IMG/VR virus record: IMGVR_UViG_3300014205_000220
Coordinates: 4,867 to 68,866 of that record
Origin: a virus
Lineage: Duplodnaviria > Caudoviricetes
Length of the DNA: 64,000 nt
Strand: one strand, 5' to 3'
The position numbers were made by a program, and so were the translations under genes. The notes beneath the pieces were generated by a model. That model was not told the DNA's origin, did not search any database, and saw only the letters and a program-made list of their open reading frames with translations. Shown piece by piece: positions 4,795-63,814 of the stretch. How positions within the stretch are numbered: the first letter of the stretch is position 1; each line of letters begins with the position of its first letter.

Positions 4795-5079
4795 TCAATC
4801 TACCAAACTCATAGCCATTTCTAAAATACTTGGCATAATGAAGTCGTACTGCTTTCTTTTTTCCTCTGGTACATCTTCTCTTTTTAGAGACATTATAAAA
4901 AGTATATGTATGTTTATATCAAGGTGTTTGCAGATGTTCCTTAAAGTCGGTATTGATGGCTCTTGCTTGTCGTTCTCGATACAGTTGTAGTATGGATTGT
5001 TGAGCTTTAGTTTCCTTGCGAATCCTTGCTGTGAATAGCCTTTTTCTTTTCGTAGTTTTTTTATTGTTTCTCCTAACAT
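4795..5079 (-). CDS. XRE-family helix-turn-helix regulator
   Basis: IKKLRKEKGYSQQGFARKL...YYNCIENDKQEPSIPTLRNICKHLDI is a classic HTH_3 pattern. Confidence 0.85.
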   Translation of the reverse strand: MLGETIKKLRKEKGYSQQGFARKLKLNNPYYNCIENDKQEPSIPTLRNICKHLDINIHILFIMSLKREDVPEEKRKQYDFIMPSILEMAMSLVD

Positions 5080-5092
5080 GATTAATTTTTAT

Positions 5093-5284
5093 TTAAAATG
5101 GACAATATTCTTTTTTGGGTTTAGGTATCAGATATTGATGCTCTCTTTTTAGCTTTTCTGAAATTGAATCACGTATGAATTGACAAACATTAATGTTATA
5201 TGATTCAAGTTTCTTCAAAGTATTATATTGAACTTCTGAAATCTTAACCGATTTTACTTTCGTATATTTTATAGACTTTGCCAT
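5093..5284 (-). CDS. Small ribbon-helix-helix-like DNA-binding protein
   Basis: N-terminal beta strand (VKSVKIS) followed by two helices (QFIRDSISEKL). Confidence 0.55.
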   Translation of the reverse strand: MAKSIKYTKVKSVKISEVQYNTLKKLESYNINVCQFIRDSISEKLKREHQYLIPKPKKEYCPF

Positions 5285-5326
5285 TGATAAGTAATACTTT
5301 TATTAATCATACTGACTTGTTAGGCA

Positions 5327-5602
5327 CTATTGTTGCAATTTACGGTCTTGTACAACTTTATTAGCACCTATTAAACTTTCTGTTGCTGCATCAAACCCTT
5401 CTTTGTATGCTTGCAACAACAGTTCGCTTTGCTGCCTAACATGTTGTATAGGTAATAATTTTAAAAATAGTCCCTCCAATTCAGTAGCAACGCTCGGTGC
5501 GTCTGCTGCATCTCCATCAACATCTTTTCTTGGTATCTTACTTACCACTTTGTAGATTTGTTCCCATACCTCGCTTCTTTGTATTCTGTTACTTTGTTCC
5601 AT
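5327..5602 (-). CDS. Cassette 1 hypothetical protein
   Basis: ORF track. Stop abuts the GTTAGGCA core and the frame reads through the R''/L'' arm. Confidence 0.65.
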   Translation of the reverse strand: MEQSNRIQRSEVWEQIYKVVSKIPRKDVDGDAADAPSVATELEGLFLKLLPIQHVRQQSELLLQAYKEGFDAATESLIGANKVVQDRKLQQ

Positions 5603-5666
5603 TTTATTAAGTTTTATCTGTTAATTATTTTTAAAATTACATACCCATACACCCAACCGTTATAGC
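5433..5666 (+). repeat. attC-like site 1 (long loop carrying the 5' part of ORF 5327-5602)
   Basis: R'' 5433-5440, inner arms 5446-5469 and 5626-5650 (near-complementary), R' GTTATAGC 5659-5666. Confidence 0.75.
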
Positions 5667-5672
5667 CAATGC

Positions 5673-5972
5673 CTAAAGAGAGTTCAGTCTATCAATTTCG
5701 GCAGCTATCAATGCACCAGCCTTTTGAAGTTCTCGTACACGATTTTCAGGCGTTCTTTTTAGCCATTTAAGTTCAAAAGGCCATATATGTAAGTGCATAT
5801 CGTTCCCCCATTCATTGTCTATAAAATCAATCGTGTCTTCGGTCATTGCATAATAAGCTGCTGCATTAGCAAGTTCACCTTCTTTATGCTCTGCATCGTG
5901 TTCGGAAGTCCATCCTTCTTTTTCAATTTGTCGCTGCCTTTCTTCGGCAATTAATTCAATTCCAGTTTTCAT
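5673..5972 (-). CDS. Cassette 2 conserved phage hypothetical protein (ERQRQIEKEGWTSEHD family)
   Basis: Motif recalled from many phage proteins, function unknown. Confidence 0.75.
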   Translation of the reverse strand: MKTGIELIAEERQRQIEKEGWTSEHDAEHKEGELANAAAYYAMTEDTIDFIDNEWGNDMHLHIWPFELKWLKRTPENRVRELQKAGALIAAEIDRLNSL

Positions 5973-5996
5973 AATTAAATTTAGTTTGTGGCACTA

Positions 5997-6093
5997 GCTA
6001 TAACAAAGTGTATAGCAAATAGCCTATTAATATTCAGTTTTTAATTCGTTGGTTCGTGCTTCGGCTACTTGCCATACACAAACCGTTGTGGTG
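5997..6093 (+). repeat. attC-like site 2 (97 bp, canonical size)
   Basis: R'' 5997-6004, arms gtgtatagcaaatagcc 6008-6024 / ggctacttgccatacac 6063-6079, R' 6085. Confidence 0.85.
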
Positions 6094-6104
6094 CATTAAA
6101 ACGA

Positions 6105-6392
6105 CACCACAACACGGTATATAAATAATAAATAATGCTAATCAACATCGTGCTTCAAACACTCGCCATTGGTATGTTTTATATATTGGCGTTTAGTCAT
6201 ATTAGCAATCCATCTATCATCCCTACACGCAGGGTTTTTACAATATTTTTGGTTTCCAGAATCCATTTCAAATTCTTCATTGCACCAAATACAGTTCTTT
6301 AAAATACCTGCTTCGCTTATGTTTTCGTGTTTGTGTTGAAAATATCCCATATCGCATTATTTACTATTCATATACCATCTACGTTATAAGCT
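6105..6392 (+). repeat. attC-like site 3 enclosing the complete ORF 6138-6350
   Basis: 23-nt arms 6116-6138 and 6354-6376, complementary at 21 of 23 positions; R' 6383. Confidence 0.8.
6138..6350 (-). CDS. Cassette 3 small zinc-binding protein (inside the attC loop)
   Basis: CIWC...YCKNPAC motif. Confidence 0.65.
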   Translation of the reverse strand: MGYFQHKHENISEAGILKNCIWCNEEFEMDSGNQKYCKNPACRDDRWIANMTKRQYIKHTNGECLKHDVD

Positions 6393-6395
6393 ATG

Positions 6396-6674
6396 TTAAT
6401 CTCCTACTATCAGAAAATCTATTCTGCATTTAGTAACAATGAATTTACCTTCTTTTTCTAATTGATTTCTAACGGCTTTTCGTGCTTTTTCTATATTGGT
6501 AGCACAAACTAATTGAGTTAACTTCATCGGTTCTGAAAAGTTAATTCCATTTCTAATTGAAATTGGCATACTTGCGTAAATATTGTCTTTTTCTTTTTCT
6601 GAATAAAAATATTCTGAATGTGACATATAGTATTTTTTACCAACTGTAGGTAAATTATCATTTAAATCTTCCAT
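6396..6674 (-). CDS. Cassette 4 hypothetical protein
   Basis: ORF fills the space between R' 6383 and R'' 6703. Confidence 0.7.
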   Translation of the reverse strand: MEDLNDNLPTVGKKYYMSHSEYFYSEKEKDNIYASMPISIRNGINFSEPMKLTQLVCATNIEKARKAVRNQLEKEGKFIVTKCRIDFLIVGD

Positions 6675-6702
6675 TTATATTTGTTTTATAAATCAAAAAC
6701 AC

Positions 6703-6839
6703 AGCTTATAACAATCGCTATATTTCAGCTTTAGGTTAGTGTTTAATTTAATGTTCTGTAATTCTTGGTTTAGTCTTTTTCAACCGAAACGCCTTTTGTG
6801 TTTGTTCAGCCGAAATTATAGCGATGGACGTTACAAGCA
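6703..6839 (+). repeat. attC-like site 4
   Basis: R'' 6703-6712, arms 6714-6730 / 6808-6825, R' 6830-6839. Confidence 0.85.
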
Positions 6840-6842
6840 ATG

Positions 6843-7313
6843 TTACACAACATCATGAATAGAAATTCCTCGACCTTCTTTAATGTGATTAAACACATCG
6901 AAATTCCATTCAAGAAACCTTTCAATTATACCAAATTTTACTCCTTTATAATGGATAAAATTGTTTTGAAATTCAATAATATCTTCTTTTGAGTGTTTAA
7001 ATGCGTTGTAATTAATAGGTACGAACAAATTTTCGTTAATGTTTATTTCGTTTGTTAAATCACTTTTTGGTCTAACAATTATTTTAACATCATCAAATTT
7101 TACATCGTATTGATACTCGCCGTTAGCAATAGTCATTTCTTCTTCTCGAAGTTCAACTATTTTGCAATCATTGTGTAATATCTCACGTTCATCGTCAAAA
7201 TATTGAAATAAAAAACTATTAGCCATTGCTATTGATAAATGTTCTAAAGTCAAAACACTGCTTGTAACAGTCGCTTTGTCTAATGGCTGGGCTTGGTTAT
7301 TTTCTGAAATCAT
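6843..7313 (-). CDS. Cassette 5 hypothetical protein
   Basis: ORF track. N-terminus (QPLDKATVTSSV) is encoded by the att arm. Confidence 0.7.
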   Translation of the reverse strand: MISENNQAQPLDKATVTSSVLTLEHLSIAMANSFLFQYFDDEREILHNDCKIVELREEEMTIANGEYQYDVKFDDVKIIVRPKSDLTNEININENLFVPINYNAFKHSKEDIIEFQNNFIHYKGVKFGIIERFLEWNFDVFNHIKEGRGISIHDVV

Positions 7314-7398
7314 AATTTTTAAATTTATTGTTAGTGTATTTTTGTGAAGTCTAGTCTTAAATCGTCGCCACTAGACAAAGTGACCGAACGTTAGCACC
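7259..7398 (+). repeat. attC-like site 5 (loop contains the start of ORF 6843-7313)
   Basis: R'' 7259-7268, arms gtcgctttgtctaatggc 7270-7287 / gccactagacaaagtgac 7367-7384, R' GTTAGCACC 7390. Confidence 0.85.
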
Positions 7399-7402
7399 AA
7401 TA

Positions 7403-7627
7403 CTACTTTAGTGCTTCTAATTCATTTTTTACTTCGCTCCAAACTGTAATAGCAGATGGTGTTTCATCATCGTAAGTGTCCCAATAAGTTTTTGTTGGGT
7501 TTTCTTCCAAAATCTTATCTACAATTAGCAATGCAATCTCAATACATTCATCGTAGAATAAAGGTGCTTTTAAACTTATTTCTTTTAACAAGTTATCTGC
7601 TTTTAATTTCACTTCTTCTTTTGTCAT
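7403..7627 (-). CDS. Hypothetical protein after the last GTT core
   Basis: ORF track. Confidence 0.65.
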   Translation of the reverse strand: MTKEEVKLKADNLLKEISLKAPLFYDECIEIALLIVDKILEENPTKTYWDTYDDETPSAITVWSEVKNELEALK

Positions 7628-7680: not shown

Positions 7681-7705
7681 AACTGTTCGGAATTTCCGAA
7701 CAGTT
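7681..7705. repeat. Perfect 10-bp-stem palindrome
   Basis: aactgttcgg-aattt-ccgaacagtt, intergenic. Confidence 0.8.
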
Positions 7706-14101: not shown

Positions 14102-14197
14102 TTATAGTCGGATATTGTTTATTGGTGATTGAATTTTACTATACCCTCTACGTTTCATTTCCTGAATGAATTTGGTTTTGTGTTCAGACGTGTTCAT
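14102..14197 (-). pseudogene. Internally deleted tyrosine integrase (IntI-like) remnant, 31 aa
   Basis: Manual translation MNTSEHKTKFIQEMKRRGYSKIQSPINNIRL*. The first part resembles an integrase N-terminal SAM-like start and the last part resembles the IntI C-terminal I.SPL motif. It points away from the adjacent cassette array. Confidence 0.55.
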
Positions 14198-14387
14198 GTT
14201 TTTATATTGGTTTTATTAGTGTTTTAAGATGTTGAATACATATAATAGTTATAGTTAATGCCTTACTCGAACGCTTTATAAAAAAGGCACTAACAATAAC
14301 ACCGTGTATAAAGCAGTCTTTAGGTCGTTTCATTTCTGCAATCTCATTTCCTTTCCCGATGAAAAAACAAAAAGCCATTGCGCTTTT

Positions 14388-14804
14388 TTAGTTACTTACG
14401 GTTAATTCCTCTCCCTCAAAAAAATAAAATAGGTTTTGCAATTGATGAACGTATTTTATAAGAAACTCAATATCGCAATTGGCTATTTTGAAAATTTCAC
14501 AATCAAAGACGCCTATTCTTTTGTTTTCCCAAACAAGGCTAAAACTGTTTTCTTTAAATCCTAGTTTCTTTAACCAATCTTCGGTTAAAATTATTCCCTC
14601 AAAACTTTCAAAAATTTCAACGTTTGTATCTTTAGTTTCAATCCAGATTGAATGAGTTGTATATCCAACATAATCTAATAAAACGACTTGGCCTACTGCC
14701 TTATCCATTACTAATTCAGAGTTTTCATAATCCCAATCACATTCAAGGCCTTTCTCATAATTTCCAACTACGTAGTTACCTATTCTTAATTCGTTTGTTT
14801 TCAT
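14388..14804 (-). CDS. Hypothetical phage protein (MKTNELRIGNYV...KYVHQLQNLFY family)
   Basis: Probable start is the ATG at 14804; common Bacteroidota phage motif. Confidence 0.75.
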   Translation of the reverse strand: MKTNELRIGNYVVGNYEKGLECDWDYENSELVMDKAVGQVVLLDYVGYTTHSIWIETKDTNVEIFESFEGIILTEDWLKKLGFKENSFSLVWENKRIGVFDCEIFKIANCDIEFLIKYVHQLQNLFYFFEGEELTVSN

Positions 14805-14808
14805 GTTT

Positions 14809-15090
14809 TTAATTGTAAATTCCTTTTTTTGCATCGCCTAAAGTTTCATACCACAAATCTTTAGTTTCTTCATCAACATTCCACCAAATAATATCTTCTT
14901 TTTCCTTTTCAATTTTTTTAATTTCCTTTTCTGAAAGTCCTTTTTTTAATTCCTCAATGAGTGATAATATTTTTTGATTTTCCATTTTGTTATTAATTTT
15001 TAGAGTTATTACTGTGTCGCATTTTGACATACATATTTGAAAATAACCTCTTTGGTTTCCAATAGTCTTCCATTCGTGATTACATTTCAT
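14809..15090 (-). CDS. Hypothetical protein (probable start MKCNHEW)
   Basis: The track ORF extends to 15177 across the att arm; the first ATG inside the loop is at 15090. Confidence 0.55.
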   Translation of the reverse strand: MKCNHEWKTIGNQRGYFQICMSKCDTVITLKINNKMENQKILSLIEELKKGLSEKEIKKIEKEKEDIIWWNVDEETKDLWYETLGDAKKGIYN

Positions 15091-15194
15091 ATTTAGTCTT
15101 TTAATTGCACTTCTATTTTTTTTTTTGGCTGTTTTGCCGAGTTGATTTTTAGCCCAGACCGCTTCATACACGATCAACGTTGTAGGTAATAAGC

Positions 15195-15437
15195 CTACTC
15201 ACTTTCTGCTACAATTGGAGATACATAAACAACAATGCTGTCGTAGTTTTCCAATTCTGTCGATATATGATGGCAAACATTTTCAACTAAAAATGCCCTT
15301 GTACCAAACTCGTTTTTCCGCTCCCAATTATATGGTAACATCCATATCGTTTCCCCAATTCTTGGCACATAGTTTTTTGTCGATGTTCCAATTGATTCTT
15401 CAGAGTTTTCTAATTCTACAATAAATTCAATATTCAT
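15195..15437 (-). CDS. Cassette 7 hypothetical protein
   Basis: ORF between R' 15179 and R'' 15482. Confidence 0.7.
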   Translation of the reverse strand: MNIEFIVELENSEESIGTSTKNYVPRIGETIWMLPYNWERKNEFGTRAFLVENVCHHISTELENYDSIVVYVSPIVAESE

Positions 15438-15481
15438 AATTTCAGTTTTTAGTTTTTAGTTTTCAAATCCGTAGGCTTACA

Positions 15482-15534
15482 TACCTACAACAATGTATAA
15501 ACGGCATTAAAACGACCGTTTATACTCACCGTTA
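15482..15534 (+). repeat. attC-like site 7 (minimal, 53 bp)
   Basis: TACCTACAAC-aat-GTATAAACGG-cattaaaacga-CCGTTTATAC-tcacc-GTTA. Confidence 0.85.
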
Positions 15535-16050: not shown

Positions 16051-16956
16051 TTATTCTTCCTCAAATTCATTAAATATTTTATCAATGAGCGCAGAGATAT
16101 AACTTGTTGTTATTTTTTCTTTATCCTTTACAGATCTCAACGCTTCAATCAAAATACCGAAGTAAGCTACATCAACTCCAATCAACTGTTCTTCCAATAC
16201 CTCAATATCGTGCAAGTCCAATTCTGAAATCTGGAACATGATTTTTAAGATTTCACCTGCGCTAATCTGCCAATGACGAAGCAAGAATTTCTTCATTCTG
16301 ATAATAGAAGTCAAAGGATAAAGTGAGCCTTGATATCTTAAATCTTTAGTGAGAATGCTTTCAAGTGCATTTTGGTTAAGTACAAGACCTTCTCTAAAAG
16401 TGAAATAGTTTGTTGCGTGTATGAAATCGAAGGTCTTGTGTATTTCTTCGGCATTGCCATTAAATCTTAAAACAATTTGAATATCATCTGTCAATGAAAT
16501 TGCGTTCTGTGAAAGAAATGCTACTTGGTAAGATTCTTCTATTGGCTGAACTAATTGCTCTGTTCTGATCCCTACGCTTGGTATATCAAGTTTTATTTGG
16601 TTTGCCTTTAGGTTTTTAATCCTTACAAAAAGCTCGGCTTGGTATTCTTCCCCATCGATAGTTTTACCATCAAATTCTTCATATTTAGGGTATCTATCTT
16701 TGATTAGTTCATCCCTTTTTCTTCCATCGAGAACACGATCTTTGCAATAGTACTGTGCTAATTCCAAAAGAGCATCCATATCTTGAATATAAACATCAAA
16801 ATCGTTTACATCTTCTTTCAATAACATAGATGTTATACATCCACCTGAAACAAGTAAATTATCTTTTACCTTATCTCTCAATCTATCATCATTAATAGAT
16901 TTAAGCCAAGCATTCATTTTGCCTGTAATTACTTTTTTAATTGTTTTGGTTTTCAT
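16051..16956 (-). CDS. Pol-beta-superfamily nucleotidyltransferase-like protein
   Basis: VSGGCITS...VNDFDVYI matches hG[G/S]x9-13DhD; later FDFIH and IRMKKF segments resemble CCA/poly(A) polymerase head domains. Confidence 0.65.
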   Translation of the reverse strand: MKTKTIKKVITGKMNAWLKSINDDRLRDKVKDNLLVSGGCITSMLLKEDVNDFDVYIQDMDALLELAQYYCKDRVLDGRKRDELIKDRYPKYEEFDGKTIDGEEYQAELFVRIKNLKANQIKLDIPSVGIRTEQLVQPIEESYQVAFLSQNAISLTDDIQIVLRFNGNAEEIHKTFDFIHATNYFTFREGLVLNQNALESILTKDLRYQGSLYPLTSIIRMKKFLLRHWQISAGEILKIMFQISELDLHDIEVLEEQLIGVDVAYFGILIEALRSVKDKEKITTSYISALIDKIFNEFEEE

Positions 16957-52424: not shown

Positions 52425-55400
52425 TTATTTTTCTTTAATCGGTATTTTACTACTATTAAATATAGGTAAATTGTTTGTTGGTGTATTGCTTGGGTTGTAT
52501 ATTGGTAAATCGTTAGGGTCTATTGCTTCTGATGTACTACCTGATGATTTTTTAGACCCATATACCGAACTGTTTATACCAAAGAACGAAAGTGCTTCCA
52601 AGTATCTTACCACTAAATTAGGGTCTTCTCCCTCAATCTCTATAATAGAGTTGATATACATTGGATAAAGGTTTTCTTTCATCGTTTCCATAATAGGTTG
52701 ACCATATCTAACTCTCATTTCCTCTCCATTGACAGTTTTAACTTCGCTATCCAAATATCTATATACAATCCCCATAGATGGACTAAATTTGTTCTCTACG
52801 TAAGTCCTCATGAGATTATCCCATTGCGTATCTGCATTATATCCTTTGCCGATTCTTTCTATTTTGCCCTTGCTATTTTTGGTGTTGCCGTCAAAAAGTT
52901 TAGCCAAAAACACAACTTGTGGTTTCATTCCGTGCCAAGGGTCAAATCTAACATCGTTATTTTTTCCTTTAATCTTCATTTGCATAAAATCACTACTTCT
53001 TGGGTCGGTTTCTATTTTTATGATAGGCTCGTCATCATCATCACTTCCTGCAAAGGCTTGTAATAAAAGCATTGATGCAGTTGTAGTCGATACAAATGTA
53101 AGCATATCTCTGACTGCTATTTTTTGTGCAACTGATGGTTTATAAATAGGGTCGTTTGGCGAATGTTGCATAACGTACCAAACAGGATTCAGTTGATTGA
53201 AAACCGAAACCGTATTTTTGAAAGAGAAAAATATTGTATTAAGAATATCGTTTATGCTTTCTAAATTAGTTGCTTTATCTCCAATCTTCCAATTAAGTTC
53301 CGCCCTACCGGTTAAAGTGTTTATTGCTCTCGCAAGTTTTCTGTAATCTTCTGGATTGTCGTTTTCATTTTTACCTTCCATTTCTATCATTTTCATTCCG
53401 TCCAAGTATCTCATACTACGGATTTCATTCATATAGATAGTGTTTCCACGCTCAAATGCGAGTAAAGGATTCATATTTTTGAAGCGTTCTGAAATTGGAA
53501 GTTTTTCTTTTTTAATATCGCTCTTGATAACTGATAATAGAGTACTTCCAACAGATGCCACATCTTTAACTCCAAATACTTTTACAGAACCATATTCAAG
53601 TCCTTTGCCTATCATATTCCAAAGACCATAGACCAAATTGTTGCCTATAAATTCTTCTTCACGAAGTTCCATTTTATAATCCGCTTCTGTAAGACCCAAT
53701 TTGAATTTCTTCATAGTATCGTAATACGGATTGGTCTTTAGCCTTGAAGTGTATTCGTCTGATTTCCTTTGACTGCCAACTGCTAAAAATGCCTTTCCAA
53801 ATGTTCTTGCAAGTGCTTTTGGATTTCTTGTAAGCAAACTTATTGTTTGAACTCCACCTTGAATAAGCACCATAGACATTTCTCCACCTGCCATAAGTAT
53901 TCTTGGGATATTCAATATTCCAATGGCTAAATCCTTGAATTTTTGAGCATTTGTTCTGTTTTTAAGTTCTAACTGATAGCTTTCCTTGTCATAAACTTCT
54001 TGCCATTTTATTTTTTCAGCAATCAAATCCCTTAACTCGTTGTCTTCTTTTATAGGGTTTCTTTCGGGTTTTGAAAAATCTTTTTCCCTTAAACGTCTTT
54101 TATATTCCTCAATCTGTTTGTTGACACGTTTTTTAGCACTTTCGATACGTCTTTTTTCTACGATACCTGCGTCCTTACGAAGTTTAAGCAATTCGTCCGA
54201 CAATGCTTTTTTAGCCTGTTTAAGTTGCTCTATTTTAGCGTTTGTGATTGTATTTTGTGTTTCACGGTATTCAAGATTCCCATCTGCAATCTGATCTGTT
54301 AGTTTTGTTATTGCGTTTTCGAGTGCTGTAACAGTCCTGTTTATTTTTTGTTGGTCTGTAAGTTCTTTTTTACCCACAAGATTGTCCAATTCTTCATTGA
54401 GCGTTTCAAGTTGTTGCTTTAATGCAATTGTTTCAGCGTCAAGTTTTGTAGGTTTTTTTTGTAATGTAGTCCGCTGTTTACTGTCAATCTGTTTTTGTAC
54501 GTCCTCAATACGGTTTTTAATACGTGACTTGATTTTATCAAGAGCGTTTCTCCATGCAACATCTAAATCAGCATCGTCAACAGGCAAATCTTTCATTTTG
54601 TCTTCAATCAATGATTTGAGTTCACGCTCTGTCTGTGTCGGTTTACGTCTTTGTAATCCACTTTTTTTAGGTCTATCGCCACCTATAACATCTTCAAGTG
54701 CAGAAAGCAACCTACCTACACCTTTCATTTCAGCAATCTTCGCTTTAAGTTGGTCTTGGGTTGGATTTATGGTCTTTCCGTATTTAGTGATTGCATCCCT
54801 AACTTCACGGATTGTAAGCCTTGTATTTGGGTCGTCTTGTTTTATTATTTCAAGTATGGCACTTGAAAGTTCGTCAATATCTTCGATGCCGTTGGCTACT
54901 AACTCATTTATTAGGCTTTGTGGAATCTGAATCTTTCCATCGTATGATAATGTGACTACGTTGTTTGCCGATGAATCAACTATGCTGTTGTTGAAAGCGT
55001 TAATAGCTTCGTCTTGGTCTGATTTTGAAAGTGATTTATACCAGTCACTTTTTTTAATGTAAGCTACGCCTTGTTTTATGGCATCTGCTATTGTGCCACC
55101 TGCTTCGATTGATTTTGCTGTTAGTTCGACTGCACCATCCCATACCAAAGTTGCAGGTGTAGCTGATGAAAATATATTCGGTCTGTGTATTTTAGCCTTT
55201 CTTACGTTATCTGCTATCTTTTTAGCTTGTGACCTTGCTGTTCTGCTTGGTTTTTTAGGATTTGGATTACGTGTATTGGCTTGTTTTATATTCTGAATCG
55301 CTTGGTTGCCTTGCTTTTTAAGATTTTCTTCTTCAAGTGCTTTTATCTTGGTTTCAAGTTCTTTTATCTTTTTATCGGCTTCCTTAAACTTGGTAAGTGT

Positions 55401-58400
55401 TTCTTCATCAATTACACCGTTGTTTTTAGCTTTGTAATCAGCGACTTGTTTGGTAAGTGAGTATTGTGTATCAGAAGTTAGAAATACCCTGTTTAAAGCC
55501 CCTATAAATCGACCTGCATTCCTAACCTCGTCTTCAAAAGCGACTAGTGCTTTGTCTAAAGTTGTACTATAATCATTTTGTACTTTTCCTATTTGTTCAA
55601 TAGAAGCCCCTTCTGACGCTTGTTTTAATCTGTCAAGGATTTCTGCATAAACAAAAGTTCTTTCAGCGCCTTTTATAAGATTATCGTCCAATGCTTTCAA
55701 GGCATTATCAATCCCTACTTTTTGAACAAACTTACGTGCTGCATCTTGTGCTTTCTCTTGGTTTTCTATTTTGTAGTTTAGACCGTTTGCTTCAATTACA
55801 TCAAGAATATCTTCGTTTGTTTCTCCTTCATAAATTCTTGCAAAAAGTGATTTTACACCTTGTTTTCTTTGAAAATCATTAGGTGCATTTTTCGGTTGTT
55901 TAGGATTCATCCTTTCCTTAACCTTATCAATATCCACATCAAAGTCAAACTTCTGTTTAAGAGCGTCCACTACTTGTTTTATAGCGGTATCAATGTCTAT
56001 GGTTGCGCTTACAAGGCTTTTAGCGGAAGATGCTATAAGGTTTATAAGTTGGTCTTGCGTGATACCGTTGGCGTTAATATCATCGGTATTGAATTTAGCT
56101 GACGGCAATGATGCTTTTAACCAATCGGCTATTTCATCAATCTTGGCATTGGCTATTTTTTTGCGCTCTTGTTTTGATTGCGTAGTATCAGTAACATTCT
56201 TTTTGCCTTTTCTTCTTTCGGCAGGTTTTTTAGCCACTTCTGAATCTGTTGCTTGGTTTCCATATATTTCTGTTTGAGTTTCTGTACTCTGTTTGTTGAA
56301 CCATTCTTCATATTGATTAGACAAAGCGTCCGTTTCGGTATTCAGTCTTTCAAGTTCTTGTTCGTTAAGTTCGGTGTCATAGTCGATACGCTCTGCTAAA
56401 GGTACTGAAAGTCTTTCTATTTGTTTTCCACTTCCTTGAATATATTCGTAGTTGCCACGCTCTTTAGCCTGTCTTAATGCTTCTACAAGACGTTTGGCAG
56501 GTACTGTATTGTTATTGCCTTTAAGTAAATCTGCTTCGCCCTTGACAATATCAGCCCTTGTCATTTCCAAGTCTATTCTTGGTGACGATGGGTCGTTATT
56601 CCATAATAGAACGCCTCTGTCAATTTCTTGAAGTGCGTAGTCTATGTCAGATGGTTTTGATGGTGGCAACTGTTCTTTAAAAGCTATTTTACCTACGCTT
56701 TTACCTAAATCATTTGTTACGGTAAGTTTGTTGGATGATTCAGAAACTTTGAAACCCAAATCTTTTGCAAGTTCGGTAACGTTACGCTTTAGCTCTCTAC
56801 CTTTTTGGCTTCGTTTTCGGGAATCGGAAAGTCGGTTGTACTCGTTACGCCTATCGACCAATGCGTTCTGTTTCTTTTGGTCTTTGGTCAGTTCTTGGGT
56901 TTCAACAACATCTGTTTCTTGTGCTGTTTGTCCTTCTGGTTCTGAAATGGTTTGCGGTTGTTGATTAGTGTTTTCTTCAATGGTTGTAGTATTATTTGGT
57001 GTATTTTCTAAAACCTCGCTGACCATTTGTGGTTTGATACTGCCTTGCTGTACCAAAAATTCGGCTTCGGTCATTTTATTACCGTCCTTGTCTATACGGC
57101 TACCGTTCTCTCTTGCTCTTGGTTGGTTAAAATCGAATTTTGATGGGTTGTTCAATGCTTTAACCAATCTTTCCTTGAACGTGTTTACAAAATCGGATTT
57201 AAGCACGCTTTCTTCCACTCCCTGTTCTTCGAGATAGTCAAGATAGCTTTGGGTGTGTTGTTCTGCAATAGCGTCAATCTGTTGGTCTTTTTGGGTTTTA
57301 TCTTCTGTTGTTATTGTGGAAGCAAGTCTTCCAATGGCTTCTCCCTCGCTTTCAAGTGGGTCGAAGTCTGTATTATTAACAACACCTTCTTTTTTTGATT
57401 GGTCTGCTTCTACAAAATCATCTTTAGGTATTCCAAGTTCATCTAAAATCTGTGCCTTTTTGGTATTTTGGTCTTCTTTCCCTACAAGTTTTATTTTGTT
57501 TGCAGGTATGCCCAATTTATCTGCAATGAATTGTCTGTTTTGAGGCGTATCTTCTCTTGCCGATATGATTGTTACATCCTCGCCATTGGCTACTTTAGAT
57601 TGGACTTCTTTACCTAAATCGGTCAACTGTTGTGATTTGTTGTCGAACAATGTATCATCAAAGTCGTATGCTGACTTTGTATTTGTAGGATTCAACTCTA
57701 CCGTAGGTGAAAGAGTGTCTTCTACTCCTTGGTTTGTTGGTGTTTCTGCAATCGATTTAAGTTGATTGTTTAGTTCTTCAATCTTTGCTTTTTTGGCAAC
57801 TACAAGTGATGGGTCTTTGCCTGATATTTCTTGTTCAAGTTTAGTCCTTTCCTTTAGAATATCTACCGCTTGCGATTTTTGTTCTACGCTCAAATCTTCT
57901 GGAACTGCTCTTAATTGGTTTTGAATTTCCTCAAAATTATCGTATGTGGTTTTAGCTTCCTCTTTTGAAATGCTACCTTCTATAACTTGTTGTGCTAATT
58001 CTATTTTTACTTGTTTTGAGTCAAGTTTTGAATCGTTCAGTATCTGAACCGCATCTTTAGTACTATTGTCGCTTGTAGCTTTCTTTATGCCCTCTAACGC
58101 AATACCAAATCCACCACCGCTTCCAACTCCTATAAGAAACGCATCGGCAACACCTTCCATTATGTTTAAATCGGGTGCTTCTCCTGAATGTATGCTAATA
58201 GCATTTTGTGTTATCTGTGTCGCTGCTTCTTCGATACCTTCACCTACCATTGCTGTTGGAATAGAGTATTTCTTCAATAGTGATTTGTAGGTTTCTATCA
58301 GTCCGTTCTTAAATATAACAGAACCTTCCTTAACACCTTCTTTCTTTAAAATCTCTTTTCCTGCTACACCGATTGTTCCTGTGCCTATTGTAGAGAAAAC

Positions 58401-59360
58401 ACCTTCTGAAAACCCTGTGCCAAGCGCATTTATGGTTTGCATACTATTGGATAGACCGCTATCTGATTCTTTCAGGTCTTCATTCTTTCCTGCTCCAAAA
58501 GTTCCTGTCGTCGCTACTAATAACGACGGTGTAGATAAAGCACCACCACTTAACGCTATCGATAAAGTAGTTGGCAATGATTCCGCAATACTGCTTGTGA
58601 GGATTCTGAAACTATCTACATAATTTCCTTGTTGAATATTATCGACTATACCACCTGTGTACTTTTTATCAAAAATTTCTTTTTCGGCAGTAGTCTGTTT
58701 TACTTTTTCGGCATAAAAGTCTTTGACTGGATTTTTTATGGAAAGGTTTTCTTTAAAGGATTCTGAATCTGCGCTTAACCCACCGATGCCAAAAGTTTCA
58801 GCGACTACGTTTTGAGGGATTGCAAATACATCATATATAAATTCAGGGATTGCAGCAATATCCCTTCCCATTCTTTCAGAACCTCTTTTTATACTTCTGT
58901 AAAGTTCGTTTCCAAAGCCGTCCGATTTATCTTCTGGCTTGAATTTATTTGGTTTTTCAGTCAATACAGCACCATCCTTTACGAGTTGACCCTTTGCAAG
59001 ATTAGTGTCTGTCGTTACACCTGACTGTGATGGCGAGAGTATTGTTCCGAGTTTTGAGGATGCACTACTTTTCTGTCCAGCCTGCGATATAACCGACGAA
59101 GAATCCGTAGTACTCGCTTGCGATACCAACTCTTGATTTGTTGAAGTGGATTTGACATTTTCTTGGCTTTTTTTTTTAATGCCTATTAATGATGAAAAAC
59201 TGTTTAAGTCGCCATTATAACCTGTGTCAACGAATAGTTTGTGAGCGTCGTTTAAGGCATCGGGATTTGTGGAAACAAGAGTTTTATAGGATTCAATAGT
59301 TCCTTTGTAGCCTGTGTCCTTGAATAGCTTATATGAATCGATTAACGCTTCGTCTTCCAT
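52425..59360 (-). CDS. Giant internal virion / DNA ejection (polyvalent-type) protein, 2311 aa
   Basis: Third and largest of three consecutive ejection-type genes; Gly/Ala-rich membrane-like segment, coiled coils, embedded HAD motif, C-terminal DPRSSDF region. Confidence 0.75.
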   Translation of the reverse strand: MEDEALIDSYKLFKDTGYKGTIESYKTLVSTNPDALNDAHKLFVDTGYNGDLNSFSSLIGIKKKSQENVKSTSTNQELVSQASTTDSSSVISQAGQKSSASSKLGTILSPSQSGVTTDTNLAKGQLVKDGAVLTEKPNKFKPEDKSDGFGNELYRSIKRGSERMGRDIAAIPEFIYDVFAIPQNVVAETFGIGGLSADSESFKENLSIKNPVKDFYAEKVKQTTAEKEIFDKKYTGGIVDNIQQGNYVDSFRILTSSIAESLPTTLSIALSGGALSTPSLLVATTGTFGAGKNEDLKESDSGLSNSMQTINALGTGFSEGVFSTIGTGTIGVAGKEILKKEGVKEGSVIFKNGLIETYKSLLKKYSIPTAMVGEGIEEAATQITQNAISIHSGEAPDLNIMEGVADAFLIGVGSGGGFGIALEGIKKATSDNSTKDAVQILNDSKLDSKQVKIELAQQVIEGSISKEEAKTTYDNFEEIQNQLRAVPEDLSVEQKSQAVDILKERTKLEQEISGKDPSLVVAKKAKIEELNNQLKSIAETPTNQGVEDTLSPTVELNPTNTKSAYDFDDTLFDNKSQQLTDLGKEVQSKVANGEDVTIISAREDTPQNRQFIADKLGIPANKIKLVGKEDQNTKKAQILDELGIPKDDFVEADQSKKEGVVNNTDFDPLESEGEAIGRLASTITTEDKTQKDQQIDAIAEQHTQSYLDYLEEQGVEESVLKSDFVNTFKERLVKALNNPSKFDFNQPRARENGSRIDKDGNKMTEAEFLVQQGSIKPQMVSEVLENTPNNTTTIEENTNQQPQTISEPEGQTAQETDVVETQELTKDQKKQNALVDRRNEYNRLSDSRKRSQKGRELKRNVTELAKDLGFKVSESSNKLTVTNDLGKSVGKIAFKEQLPPSKPSDIDYALQEIDRGVLLWNNDPSSPRIDLEMTRADIVKGEADLLKGNNNTVPAKRLVEALRQAKERGNYEYIQGSGKQIERLSVPLAERIDYDTELNEQELERLNTETDALSNQYEEWFNKQSTETQTEIYGNQATDSEVAKKPAERRKGKKNVTDTTQSKQERKKIANAKIDEIADWLKASLPSAKFNTDDINANGITQDQLINLIASSAKSLVSATIDIDTAIKQVVDALKQKFDFDVDIDKVKERMNPKQPKNAPNDFQRKQGVKSLFARIYEGETNEDILDVIEANGLNYKIENQEKAQDAARKFVQKVGIDNALKALDDNLIKGAERTFVYAEILDRLKQASEGASIEQIGKVQNDYSTTLDKALVAFEDEVRNAGRFIGALNRVFLTSDTQYSLTKQVADYKAKNNGVIDEETLTKFKEADKKIKELETKIKALEEENLKKQGNQAIQNIKQANTRNPNPKKPSRTARSQAKKIADNVRKAKIHRPNIFSSATPATLVWDGAVELTAKSIEAGGTIADAIKQGVAYIKKSDWYKSLSKSDQDEAINAFNNSIVDSSANNVVTLSYDGKIQIPQSLINELVANGIEDIDELSSAILEIIKQDDPNTRLTIREVRDAITKYGKTINPTQDQLKAKIAEMKGVGRLLSALEDVIGGDRPKKSGLQRRKPTQTERELKSLIEDKMKDLPVDDADLDVAWRNALDKIKSRIKNRIEDVQKQIDSKQRTTLQKKPTKLDAETIALKQQLETLNEELDNLVGKKELTDQQKINRTVTALENAITKLTDQIADGNLEYRETQNTITNAKIEQLKQAKKALSDELLKLRKDAGIVEKRRIESAKKRVNKQIEEYKRRLREKDFSKPERNPIKEDNELRDLIAEKIKWQEVYDKESYQLELKNRTNAQKFKDLAIGILNIPRILMAGGEMSMVLIQGGVQTISLLTRNPKALARTFGKAFLAVGSQRKSDEYTSRLKTNPYYDTMKKFKLGLTEADYKMELREEEFIGNNLVYGLWNMIGKGLEYGSVKVFGVKDVASVGSTLLSVIKSDIKKEKLPISERFKNMNPLLAFERGNTIYMNEIRSMRYLDGMKMIEMEGKNENDNPEDYRKLARAINTLTGRAELNWKIGDKATNLESINDILNTIFFSFKNTVSVFNQLNPVWYVMQHSPNDPIYKPSVAQKIAVRDMLTFVSTTTASMLLLQAFAGSDDDDEPIIKIETDPRSSDFMQMKIKGKNNDVRFDPWHGMKPQVVFLAKLFDGNTKNSKGKIERIGKGYNADTQWDNLMRTYVENKFSPSMGIVYRYLDSEVKTVNGEEMRVRYGQPIMETMKENLYPMYINSIIEIEGEDPNLVVRYLEALSFFGINSSVYGSKKSSGSTSEAIDPNDLPIYNPSNTPTNNLPIFNSSKIPIKEK

Positions 59361-62066: not shown

Positions 62067-63814
62067 TTTTTTAGTGTTTTTGAATTACCGTGGTATAATT
62101 GAAATGCGCCTAATATTGTTGCGTTAAATTCAAATATTTCTTCCAAAGAATAATGTTCGTTGTTTCTTTTGATATATTGCCTAATTCCATCTAACATAGT
62201 TTGATTACGCCTGCTATCAAAAATACTTTGCCTTAAATCAATAGATTTTAATATTTCTTCTTTTTTCATAATCTATGATTTTTTAGTGTAGAAGCACACG
62301 AGGACAATACGAGTGCCTCTCTCAATCTTACTCGGAAACTTTGCGTGGAATTGATTGCTTGAATAGGTAAGCATACGATTTGGTACACTTGTGATTATAT
62401 CCTTTATCTGCCACTTTAAAGGGTCGTTGCTATCTTCCTTTAGTAACTTGTCAAATTCTTCGTTAGAAATGTTCTCTGGAAGTTCTCTTTTATAGTAATT
62501 GTGAGAATAAAAGGCTGTCCCGTTCTTTGAAACATCTTCTTCGTTGTTTATATAAAGTACCGATGCGAGGGCTGTTTTATGACCGTTAATCAAATTATCA
62601 GCGTGTATAGATGGCGTGGTGTTGTGATTTTTGTCTGCCATCCGAATAAACGAAAGCACAAGTTCGTGTCCACTGAATTGCAATAAAGGAATCAATTCTT
62701 TGGGTGTTTCAAGAACAAAGAAGTCTTTACCCTCTGTTTCTACTTTCTGAAACTCATTGTTGTTACAGTAGTCTTGTAATGCTTTGAATGTTTCGGTTGT
62801 AAAGTATTGGTCTTGTACGAAAATCATACGTTTTTTATATAAGAATTTATGCACTTTGTTCTTTTGGATTGTGCAATATCCATAATTCTTTCAGCATCAA
62901 AAATCAATAACGCTTGTTTCATAACGTTATAAACATCTGCTAATTCAGAATACATTTCTGATTCAATTTGCTCTTTATCTTTGGTAGAGCAAAGTGATTT
63001 AAGAATTACAGTAGCTAATTCACTACATTCTTCACCAATTTTAATAATTTGCTTATCTTTTCCAAAATGGTCTAAAATAAGCTGTGATTCTTCTCTAATG
63101 TTATCTTTCATAGTTTCTATATTTTTGGTAAATCATTACTCTCACTACCAACAATCTCATATTCAAAGTTTATTTCCTTTGTTAGTTCCGTTAGTTGAGG
63201 TATTGTTTTTCTATCACTTGCTACTCTATAACCTTTACTCATTCCTATTGGTATGAGGTTCATCTTCTTTAAAGGGAAGTGTCTGCCACTGATTATTGAA
63301 GGTAGTCTGTAAAGCTGTTCGTTCTTCCATCCGTAGGTAATTCCTTTGTAGGTGAATCCGTATTTGAATGTTTGTTTCATGTGTTTAATTTTAAATTTTT
63401 ATATGATTAAGCGTAAAACCCACTGATGCCGACAGGCTCGGTGGGGAAAAATGACAATTCTTCTGTCATTGTAAACTTGCCGTTTTCAACTGCATTTTTA
63501 AAACGTTCGATGTTTGTTTATGTTTTCATTGGTTGTATTTTATAAGTGATTATACACAGTAGTTATATGCAAATGTATAAAGGGTCGTACTTATCACAAT
63601 CTATGTCAAGGCAATATAAACCCATCCCCCCATTTAAATATTCTACTTCTACATTATGTATGTCTGTAGCAATCCCTGTAATTATCCCAATATTGCCATC
63701 AGTATCTTTTACTTTGGTCTGTAATTTTACATCAGCATATAACAATGGGTATAATCCATTACTTTTTTTATATCCTCGCTTCAGTAATCTTAAAAATGTT
63801 CTTACACTTATCAT
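62063..63814 (-). CDS. Other small hypothetical ORFs (62063-62269, 63117-63380, 63563-63814)
   Basis: ORF track. Confidence 0.55.
62273..62854 (-). CDS. 2OG-Fe(II) oxygenase
   Basis: HAD (HxD)...VLYIN...GTAFY...NRML...FH...RIVLVCF. Confidence 0.85.
   Translation of the reverse strand: MHKFLYKKRMIFVQDQYFTTETFKALQDYCNNNEFQKVETEGKDFFVLETPKELIPLLQFSGHELVLSFIRMADKNHNTTPSIHADNLINGHKTALASVLYINNEEDVSKNGTAFYSHNYYKRELPENISNEEFDKLLKEDSNDPLKWQIKDIITSVPNRMLTYSSNQFHAKFPSKIERGTRIVLVCFYTKKS
62824..63111 (-). CDS. MazG-like NTP pyrophosphohydrolase
   Basis: QIIKIGEECSEL...ELADV. Confidence 0.8.
   Translation of the reverse strand: MKDNIREESQLILDHFGKDKQIIKIGEECSELATVILKSLCSTKDKEQIESEMYSELADVYNVMKQALLIFDAERIMDIAQSKRTKCINSYIKNV

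Follow-up and report, generated by a model that had tools for sequence, protein, structure and literature searches.

The window, the 64,000-nt stretch of phage DNA analyzed here, contains ten abutting inverted-repeat pairs that tile positions 5319-7398 (array 1). GTT...AAC units carrying genes alternate in this array with hairpins of 17-25 bp. On the plus strand, each AAC is followed by 1-4 nt, an imperfect inverted repeat of 17-25 bp, 4-7 unpaired nucleotides and the next GTT, and the complementarity of the cores extends to the G of GTT and the C of AAC and no further. The features of array 1 are listed below.

5093-5284, minus strand: conserved anchor gene (63 aa, phrog_25647), directly downstream of array 1
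5319-5440, minus strand: terminal GTT...AAC unit, the last before the anchor gene, inside ORF 5327-5602; it looks decayed, with 8-bp pairing only (cores 5319-5326 and 5433-5440)
5445-5651, minus strand: hairpin unit L1, 25-bp arms (5445-5469 and 5626-5651) with one indel; the loop contains the start of ORF 5327-5602
5659-6004, minus strand: module C, exact 8-bp cores (5659-5666 and 5997-6004) and a 15-bp stem with G.T at position 11; it encloses ORF 5673-5972 (99 aa, a widespread family of unknown function)
6008-6079, minus strand: hairpin unit L2, 17-bp arms (6008-6024 and 6063-6079), 72 nt, non-coding
6085-6113, minus strand: empty module, 9-bp stem (6085-6093 and 6105-6113) with the conserved 11-nt loop TCGTTTTAATG (coding strand); this element is present in more than 120 viral contigs
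6116-6376, minus strand: hairpin unit L3, 23-bp arms (6116-6138 and 6354-6376, 21/23 paired), with ORF 6138-6350 in the loop (70 aa, weak HNH-like match)
6383-6712, minus strand: module E, exact 10-bp cores (6383-6392 and 6703-6712), 15-bp stem, ORF 6396-6674 (92 aa)
6714-6825, minus strand: hairpin unit L4, arms 6714-6730 and 6808-6825, 112 nt, a member of a hairpin family of about 110 nt with an A-rich loop
6830-7268, minus strand: module F, exact 10-bp cores (6830-6839 and 7259-7268), 15-bp stem, ORF 6843-7226, which would extend to 7313 if it started in the loop of the next hairpin
7270-7384, minus strand: hairpin unit L5, 18-bp arms (7270-7287 and 7367-7384), 115 nt
7390-7404, minus strand: orphan 3' arm AGTATTGGTGCTAAC (coding strand), after ORF 7403-7627; a partner arm was sought and none was found

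The preliminary description of this DNA had reported five GTT...AAC units with exactly complementary cores, each AAC core being followed by a 17-25 bp imperfect inverted repeat and the next GTT, with a stop codon close to GTT in four of them. All five units (cores of 8-10 bp) and the five repeats were located as described, and the stop codon was measured at 0-6 nt from the GTT core in 4/5 units. The pairing of 8-mer GTT/AAC cores alone was not significant: 130 such pairs occur in the window, and loose chaining of them yields chance chains of 8, so they were dropped as sole evidence. The tiling was then compared with 40 dinucleotide shuffles, using an arm score of at least 9, a span of at most 520 and a gap of at most 7; the genome contains one chain of 8 abutting pairs, compared with a maximum of 2-4 in the shuffles. 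In relatives, the same format was found upstream of the anchor gene, with chains of up to 15, and the anchor gene marks the identical array position in 17 related contigs.

The array system reaches beyond the region first described. A second array lies at 14248-15531, and a solitary module is located near the right genome end.

14102-14247, minus strand: conserved leader (TATTATATGTATTCAAC...) and remnant of an Xer-like recombinase gene, with the ATG at 14197
14248-14300, minus strand: small module, closest of all units to the recombinase remnant; its stem is 17 bp and has G.T at position 11
14303-15172, minus strand: hairpin unit, 17-bp arms; two ORFs, 14388-14804 and 14809-15090, lie in its loop of 836 nt
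15179-15491, minus strand: module with a 10-bp stem and ORF 15195-15437
15495-15525, minus strand: small hairpin whose loop is the conserved 11-nt one; an orphan GTT half-site comes next, at 15531
63562-63743, minus strand: solitary module, 182 nt, with the geometry of the array modules

The recombinase remnant (14102-14197) comprises 31 codons, is internally deleted with the C-terminal KIQSPINNIRL before its stop codon, and ends array 2 together with the leader. No match to PF00589, PF00239 or PF01797 was found in the 68.9-kb genome of this phage (with terminal repeats), and no tyrosine or serine recombinase and no Y1 transposase was observed other than the deleted remnant. Judged from its gene content, this phage has no functional recombinase, the gene apparently having been lost by internal deletion; thus, its two arrays would be mobile only with an enzyme supplied by a co-infecting phage or prophage. 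Several other candidates were considered and rejected, including ORF 16051-16956 as a diverged recombinase (hhalign probability 6%) and a HUH endonuclease that would nick the conserved loop (a Y1 transposase is absent, and none of ten unannotated proteins had such a Pfam match). A virion RNA polymerase with hairpin promoters was likewise rejected: the 2311-aa ORF had no PHROG or PDB match, and no hairpin promoter was found in the crAss-like literature.

The format was found in many Bacteroidota phage contigs. The modules read GTTR...YAAC and either are empty, with the 11-nt loop, or enclose one small gene; position 11 of their 15-bp stem is a G.T wobble, which in all cases lies on the coding strand. 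The spacer hairpins have stems of 17-20 bp and span about 35, 55, 70 or 110 nt. A junction reads ...YAAC, 5-6 nt, a 17-20 bp stem with a variable loop, 1-3 nt and GTTR..., and the units are joined at invariant feet (...YAAC/G(G)TT.. and ..T/GTTR..., the slash marking the joint). In a set of 48 modules, stem positions 1-9 and 12-15 were Watson-Crick, position 11 was G.T in 37 modules and Watson-Crick in 3, and T..G flanks surrounded the stem in 32; conserved bulged bases were not observed in these module stems. The wobble recurred among 265 recombinase-adjacent modules (G.T in 168, Watson-Crick in 21). The stem positions that depart from Watson-Crick pairing were G.T in 84 cases versus A.C in 15, and the coding strand gave the more stable fold in 45/45 module stems. 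Pairing also persisted where the sequence changed, since 145 of the 168 free stem positions were Watson-Crick in 28 distinct hairpins whose loop and ends alone are fixed, and homologs of cassettes E and C retained pairing through compensatory changes. The stem is not a property of the gene that it encloses, as only 2 of 80 homologs of gene C have it.

The mRNA has the sequence of the folded strand; thus, a role at the RNA level is possible. A long-range helix would close each cistron of an early transcript, with hairpins between cistrons, and would serve processing, protection of mRNA ends or insulation; the modularity would reflect the short conserved sequence of the feet and the loss of all recombinants in which a unit is broken. 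The fold lies on the coding strand in every array, and the arrays are always co-oriented with the flanking transcription, which in Polaribacter phage P12002L holds in both orientations. The stop codon overlaps the 3' arm of the module (with modes at 13 and 1 nt ahead of the final C), and a fixed wobble of the G.U type with a conserved loop is typical for RNA motifs. The GTTG...CAAC ends may resemble some CRISPR repeats, and the stem foot may resemble RNase P substrates; these possible likenesses carry no weight here. However, no Rfam family matched, and stems acting only in RNA leave unexplained both the linked recombinase and the transfer of units described below. We therefore consider this explanation unlikely.

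In the relatives, the arrays are accompanied by a gene for an Xer-like tyrosine recombinase of about 265 aa (PF00589, E=8e-25), in which the residues R, K, H, R, H and Y are fully conserved. One member of the family is encoded at L183:6918-7709. The conserved leader (TAYYATATAT...) separates the gene from the last unit, which ends 40-70 nt upstream of it, and the gene was co-oriented and at the downstream end of the array in 13/13 loci. In the reciprocal test, with loci found from the recombinase alone, a unit ended within 200 nt upstream in 63/71 loci, compared with a background of about 4; a dedicated recombinase at this fixed distance has no place in an account based on RNA alone. Among 120 loci, no protein family other than the recombinase was found near the conserved hairpin more than 23 times. 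Pairs with near-identical leader and recombinase had differing units beside the leader. The linkage of recombinase and variable region could in part reflect the usual build-up of accessory genes beside integrase genes. The closest solved structures were those of Xer-like proteins and IntI4. A 264-aa recombinase aligned end to end with the 292-aa XerC-like chain 4a8e, whereas its alignment with IntI4 (2a3v) was limited to residues 15-173, which suggests from the alignments that the enzyme lacks the IntI-specific insertion.

A comparison of relatives for gain, loss and reordering of units, as called for in the preliminary description, revealed all three, together with replacement, and the breakpoints lay at the AAC/GTT feet. 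Module E was also present in contig L018 and in an unrelated phage, G001 (contig L019, 68.7 kb), with limits exactly at GTT and AAC; the homology stopped at window positions 6382/6383 and 6712/6713 in both. Cassette E is nearly the sole DNA common to G001 and the phage studied here, the rest being unrelated over about 69 kb, and the hairpins adjoining the cassette E homologs were unrelated on both sides. The collection contains no relatives in which to look for an empty site of the solitary module in G001. In all nine pairs with one side in common (9/9), divergence began 0-2 nt after AAC, and unrelated contigs shared non-coding blocks at 92-100% identity. Neither these non-coding units nor the transfer of a lone module into an unrelated genome is explained by a function confined to RNA. 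Contigs L010 and L012, with backbones 99.6% identical, carry two blocks in the orders A-B and B-A, with all junctions after YAAC, and the block that changes place consists of a hairpin plus a module. On the plus strand, this permuting block is a module plus the following hairpin, and the folding strand is the complementary, "bottom" strand; this fits the strand chosen for folding in the preliminary description. These sequence patterns suggest that modules and hairpins are exchangeable and sometimes inherited separately, which a single crossover point would not explain. Close relatives of the array region were sought among GenBank phages, and none was found.

Such exchange resembles that of the PeSL cassettes of T4-type phages, where small ORFs without known function change places between stem-loops that recur in the intergenic regions, with circular intermediates reported; PeSLs are promoter-plus-terminator motifs that act via homologous recombination (PMC2839356, PMC4122927). 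Both systems concern hypervariable phage regions with small ORFs shuffled among stem-loop elements. By this precedent (PMC2839356), general or annealing-type homologous recombination between conserved intergenic hairpins, with an Erf-like protein and stimulation by nearby homing endonucleases, could have moved the units without a site-specific enzyme. The hairpin elements do fall into sequence families common to different phages, and in contig L074 one 108-nt element lies on either side of a module. Genes for homing endonucleases and for Erf-like and Gam-like proteins are present in this phage, and the L010 and L012 arrays are abutted by different homing endonuclease genes. However, the breakpoints lie at the feet, 0-2 nt from AAC, and not within homologous hairpins; the module stems are cassette-specific, so different modules offer no homology to each other; and the strand-specific pairing and fixed wobble are unaccounted for. 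In contrast to PeSLs, the stems here bracket each gene, are unit- and strand-specific and are joined at their feet, and a site-specific recombinase is linked. The hairpin loops are A-rich (50% A) and do not show a promoter-plus-terminator design; inspection by eye of the hairpin loops revealed no Bacteroidota -7 motif (TAnnTTTG), and no T-runs followed the stems. Homologous shuffling of this kind thus appears quite unlikely.

Integrons are the textbook device for single-gene capture and, to our knowledge, are known almost only from bacteria with IntI. The arrays share with them a series of small, mostly promoterless one-gene units, each with a start that is complementary to the end of the same unit, and the separation of units by imperfect hairpins that have GTT/AAC cores. 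In both, one specific strand folds and the exchange joints lie at the core; in the relatives, as in integrons, a tyrosine recombinase and a conserved leader occupy one array end and the leader-adjacent unit is variable. The junctions follow the attC layout of core, stem, spacer and loop (RYYYAAC/GTTRRRY), and complementarity within units is combined with crossover at the GTT/AAC core. Orphan arrays without an enzyme (CALINs) also exist among integrons, and the five junctions at 5319-7398 and the two at 14248-15531 correspond to the CALIN definition (two or more attC-like sites in a stretch of a few kb that lacks a nearby integrase), although these sites are not classical attC. The differences are equally specific. 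The enzyme is Xer-like, with a full-length match to XerA/XerC-like proteins and a match to IntI4 over the first two thirds only, and no IntI-type integrase is adjacent. The R stem is 15 bp, cassette-specific and marked by a fixed G.T, whereas integrons have 7-bp R boxes shared among cassettes and conserved extrahelical L-box bases, neither of which was found here; the spacer is 5-6 nt versus 1-3 nt. The genes lie on the folded ("bottom") strand, co-oriented with the recombinase, and also occur in hairpin loops; hairpins and modules can move separately, and the range is that of Bacteroidota phages.

One such junction in P12002L was called attC/CALIN by HattCI and was tested with IntI1 as P12002L_attC1; it is the only one of six sites without verified recombinants (PMC9892861), which speaks against IntI1 but not against other enzymes. 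This attC1 has exactly the junction format described here, with the identical 11-nt loop, and P12002L carries several GTTR...YAAC modules. For one of them (14622-15197), the relation of fold strand to gene strand is ambiguous because overlapping ORFs lie on both strands. As far as its accessible text goes, PMC9892861 handles the sites as classical attC and leaves the module stems, the coding-strand wobble and a linked Xer-like recombinase undescribed. We considered whether the arrays could be a genuine integron fragment on whose sites a bacterial IntI integrase acts, as the HattCI call, the attC-like order R''-L''-loop-L'-R' and the GTT/AAC cores would allow. The result with IntI1, the absence of IntI here and beside the arrays of relatives, the stem design without extrahelical bases and the inversion of the genes relative to classical cassettes have largely refuted this explanation, which is now very improbable.

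Xer recombination on folded single-stranded DNA is known for the CTX phage and IMEX elements; in CTX, host XerCD and a dif-like site integrate the whole phage genome. There, an Xer-type tyrosine recombinase acts on a hairpin from one strand of a mobile element, as may also apply to the arrays, but the Xer-like enzyme here is phage-encoded and linked to arrays of many small units. A duplex Xer/dif core site has two inverted arms of about 11 bp around a central region of 6-8 bp. In the arrays, the arms are 11 nt apart or far more, and the bias of G.T over A.C on one strand is unexpected for a duplex site; thus, the units are not double-stranded sites of the Xer/dif type.

Taken together, the sequence comparisons lead us to propose, with a probability of about two in three, that this region belongs, as an orphan array, to a phage-borne, integron-like system of gene cassettes in Bacteroidota phages. 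The system would work like a bacterial integron but is neither a true integron nor a member of the integron family, because it has no IntI, uses another site design and carries its genes inverted, and because the P12002L site gave no verified IntI1 recombinants. The recombinase would recognize the single-stranded, folded coding strand, by analogy with IntI on attC bottom strands and XerCD on folded CTX phage DNA, and cut at the ...AA/C foot; a hairpin-plus-module block would be excised as a circle and reinserted beside the leader. The preliminary description had interpreted the units as integron attC cassettes through which this phage shuffles genes. The integron-type architecture stands, and units of relatives do shuffle at their feet beside a dedicated tyrosine recombinase, but the sites and enzyme are not those of integrons, and this phage could not shuffle its genes alone. 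Its statement that such recombination is not well described for phages or Bacteroidota is correct in part: the published descriptions that were found are isolated "attC/CALIN" calls such as that of P12002L (PMC9892861).

The cargo consists of small genes of unknown function and then of small DNA-binding regulators, and probably represents accessory or counter-defence genes. With somewhat less assurance, we regard it as rather probable that Bacteroidota phages possess a second, independently built integron-type platform for gene capture, in which a phage Xer-like recombinase joins folded coding-strand DNA at the stem feet. Through it, hundreds of unrelated phages, including jumbo phages, would trade single accessory, probably counter-defence, genes and empty landing-pad hairpins, the window representing a decayed copy served by the enzyme only in trans. 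If so, a parallel phage system, with another recombinase lineage and another folded site, would explain the one-gene-at-a-time turnover of the hypervariable early-gene islands of Bacteroidota phages, and the small ORFs of such islands would be a pool of traded accessory or anti-defence genes. The sites would then add a new family to the structure-specific recombination sites, and one simple rule would define it (GTTR/YAAC feet on a stem of 15 bp that has G.T at position 11); software matches to "attC" in phages need not be classical integrons.

The source genome of the window is a phage in a single contig of 68,866 nt with direct terminal repeats, and all genes between 3 and 20 kb lie on its minus strand. 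A preliminary description had proposed five GTT...AAC units with inverted repeats between them; the positions of the five units were exactly reproduced, and the inverted repeats were found exactly where they had been placed. A single 8-mer GTT/AAC pair carries no meaning by itself, because the window contains 130 such pairs in total and, at loose settings, runs of eight abutting pairs turn up by chance elsewhere in the genome. Under strict settings (arm score ≥9, span ≤520, gap ≤7), one eight-pair chain was observed in the genome (5659-7384), compared with a maximum of 2-4 in 40 dinucleotide shuffles. The complementarity ends precisely with the G that opens GTT and the C that closes AAC. Besides this first array, the following features were located:

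14248-15531, array 2
14102-14247, minus strand, conserved leader and 31-codon remnant of an Xer-like recombinase, downstream of array 2
63562-63743, solitary unit of 182 nt (GTTATATGC...GCATATAAC) that shares the family geometry and lies close to the genome's right end, distant from both arrays

The family geometry was satisfied by modules C, E and F of array 1, by the small module of array 2 and by the solitary module. The unit at 5319-5440, with a stem of just 8 bp, appeared decayed, and three half-sites without a partner were present at 7390, 7663 and 15531. Read in the coding sense, the first array gene is closely preceded by a 22-nt palindrome of another type than GTT/AAC (7683-7704; CTGTTCGGAAATTTCCGAACAG, 10-bp arms with a central AT).

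In coding orientation, two kinds of self-complementary unit alternate in the arrays: modules of the form GTTR...YAAC, and spacer hairpins. Stem geometry was analyzed over a set of 48 modules, drawn from the window and from its relatives. Positions 1-9 of the module stem were Watson-Crick pairs in 45-48 of the 48; position 11 held a G.T wobble in 37/48, the G being on the 5' arm, and a Watson-Crick pair in 3/48; positions 12-15 were again Watson-Crick, and no pairing was seen from position 16 on. The bases immediately flanking the stem were T and G in 32/48, the start codon lay a median of 38 nt past GTT, and the stop codon ended 13 nt or 1 nt ahead of the final C. An empty module also exists (6085-6113), in which a 9-bp stem encloses the loop TCGTTTTAATG. 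The spacer hairpins begin 5-6 nt past AAC, after a gap that is usually G(G)TTn, and stop short of the next GTTR by 1-3 nt, the base preceding GTT being T in every case. Their stems of 17-20 bp show the same apical order as the modules (G.T wobble, about four pairs, loop), and their spans are about 35, 55, 70 or 110 nt, the 110-nt hairpins forming one sequence family with a small inner hairpin and an A-rich loop. Genes were also observed in hairpin loops, at 6138-6350 in array 1 and as two ORFs in array 2.

The non-Watson-Crick stem positions on the coding strand comprised 84 G.T versus 15 A.C, a bias that would not be expected of a duplex protein-binding site. With RNA parameters, the coding-strand module stem was the more stable in 45/45 cases (-19.3 vs -15.1 kcal/mol), and with DNA parameters in 42/45. 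The G.T bias and the coding-strand stability therefore indicated that one strand folds.

A search with the anchor gene, a conserved 63-aa gene directly downstream of array 1 (5093-5284, minus strand), retrieved 17 related contigs, most of which carried same-format arrays immediately upstream of this gene, in chains of up to 15 units; the window's own cassettes were absent from all 17. Scanning the viral collection with the empty-module pattern GTTR-N5-TCGTTTTAATG-N5-YAAC yielded more than 120 contigs among the matches listed, and in 28 distinct hairpins among these matches, 145 of 168 unconstrained stem positions were Watson-Crick, 10 were G.T and 3 were A.C. The same pattern in prokaryotes, with one genome per species, gave 65 paired hairpins, nearly all in Bacteroidota records and mostly on short MAG contigs, and 16 unpaired matches, at chance level and in other phyla. 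Compensatory substitutions (TA/TA to GT/AC; A-T to G-C) preserved the stem in homologs of cassettes E and C. Any stem was found in just 2 of 80 gene C homologs in other phages, one of the two with a different stem sequence; therefore, the stem is the format of the phage group, and its reading as a property of gene C was rejected.

The units were also found in unrelated surroundings. Cassette E showed 82-84% identity to two viral loci, L018 and L019, with homology limits at 6382/6383 and 6712/6713, and the 68.7-kb phage genome behind L019 (G001) has almost no other similarity to the window's phage. The solitary cassette E of that genome has, immediately upstream (L019:3715-3790), a sequence resembling a tRNA and a hairpin resembling a terminator. 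Cassette C was 94% identical in L021, with unrelated flanks. Among empty-module contexts, 9/9 pairs with a common upstream and a different downstream side split 0-2 nt past AAC, and non-coding blocks of 82-310 nt ending at AAC (92-100% identity) were common to otherwise unrelated contigs. Loci L010 and L012, 99.6% identical over 10 kb, carry two hairpin-plus-module blocks in the order B-A versus A-B, with all junctions immediately past YAAC. The breakpoints at GTT/AAC cores anticipated for related phages were borne out by these homology limits and junctions. An identical 9-10 bp outer core was found around unrelated contents. Given the breakpoints at the unit ends (feet), the reordering and the shared cores around unrelated contents, the units act as separate pieces that can be exchanged. 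In a few hairpins (L256, L277 and several in IMG/VR, for example GTTATGGCA-loop-TTTTACAAC) the two arms are mismatched, hybrids of different hairpins around the conserved loop, which suggests the 11-nt loop as a further route of deletion or exchange. The slot between array and anchor gene holds different homing-endonuclease-like genes in L010 (1932-2567) and L012 (7180-7682), HNH/AP2-like and GIY-YIG-like, respectively, as judged from their translations.

ORF clustering around 120 hairpin loci among the matches listed identified a protein family of about 265 aa in 13 loci, which matched PF00589 (E=8e-25) and has the invariant residues R, K, H, R, H and Y. Its closest solved structures were XerC-like/XerA proteins (full length, 1e-22); the match to IntI4 (6e-18) was limited to residues 15-173, and XerD came next. 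In 13/13 loci the recombinase was located at the downstream end of the array and co-oriented with it, and in 9/13 it started 37-67 nt past the last unit. DNA methyltransferases were the commonest protein family near the hairpins (23/120 loci, among the matches listed), an echo of the methyltransferase cassettes reported in PMC9892861. In a reciprocal test starting from the recombinase family alone (at least 483 loci, contigs up to 349 kb), 63 of the 71 loci with enough upstream sequence had a same-strand GTTR...YAAC unit whose end lay no more than 200 nt upstream of the recombinase. Unit density was 20-30 per 200-nt bin across 3 kb upstream of the recombinase, versus a background of 2-6 downstream. 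The linked units had the same stem geometry, and a conserved leader (TAttATATATaaa...) came after the last AAC; near-identical leader-plus-recombinase pairs were adjoined by different units, of 163, 717, 890 or 29 nt.

At the level of sequence, these comparisons demonstrated the architecture, a strand-specific covarying fold, unit exchange at the feet and genetic linkage to an Xer-like recombinase. A purely RNA-level role of the stems is unlikely and does not explain linkage to the recombinase in combination with transfer of units that lack coding sequence. The same combination is left unexplained by homologous shuffling of the kind seen with PeSL cassettes, the nearest analogue in phages, which we consider marginally less probable still, and by a true IntI-dependent CALIN, which is very improbable. 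We proposed instead that the Xer-like recombinase would act on the folded coding strand and cut between AA and C of the ...AAC foot; the excised block would be a circle, in which the two arms of a module would flank the hairpin in an attC-like nested structure. On the plus strand, the layout in relatives (leftward recombinase, leader, then module-plus-hairpin cassettes) matches that of integrons; unlike the integron layout, however, the genes here are on the folded strand. The integron-type reading first proposed was partly supported: integron-like working was retained, given the architecture, the exchange at the feet and the linked recombinase in relatives, but the system stands outside the integron family, and the array copy in the window's phage is an orphan.

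No tyrosine recombinase, serine recombinase or Y1 transposase was found in the genome of the window's phage, which encodes Erf-like and Gam-like proteins, an O-like initiator, a methyltransferase and homing endonucleases. A 301-aa ORF (16051-16956) was considered as a recombinase and rejected. Array 2 terminates in AAC followed by TATTATATGTATTCAAC..., and the 31-codon ORF (14197 to 14102) starts 51 nt further. Its C-terminal 11 residues (KIQSPINNIRL*) match those that end one recombinase of the family (KIQSPLSNIKL*), scoring 44, whereas the highest score from 300 shuffles was 33; toward the N-terminus it aligns in register with the same protein, but not significantly. The leader and remnant beside array 2 indicate that this phage formerly had the full platform and lost the enzyme by internal deletion.

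In PMC9892861, 17 CALINs are reported in phages, and P12002L_attC1 (TGCTAAC-GGCTAC-GGCTAAACGG-TCGTTTTAATG-CCGTTTTAGCC-AT-GTTAGGC) is the sole site of six without verified IntI1 recombinants. Judged from its sequence, this site is a junction of the present array family, and P12002L contains several modules of the same format. Neither the module stems nor the wobble rule nor the linked recombinase of Xer-like type was described in any paper found by our literature search.

The array cargo had no Pfam matches and fell into PHROG families of unknown function. In the structural block, a 2311-aa ORF (52425-59360, minus strand) belonged to no PHROG family, and its sequence matched none of the solved structures. 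Within one cassette, upstream of its ORF, an Rfam DUF805b RNA (RF02914) was matched with 47 bits (L011:298-329). At 4795-5284, array 1 is followed by the 63-aa gene (phrog_25647) and an XRE-type HTH gene, a layout that recalls anti-defence operons ending in a small regulator.
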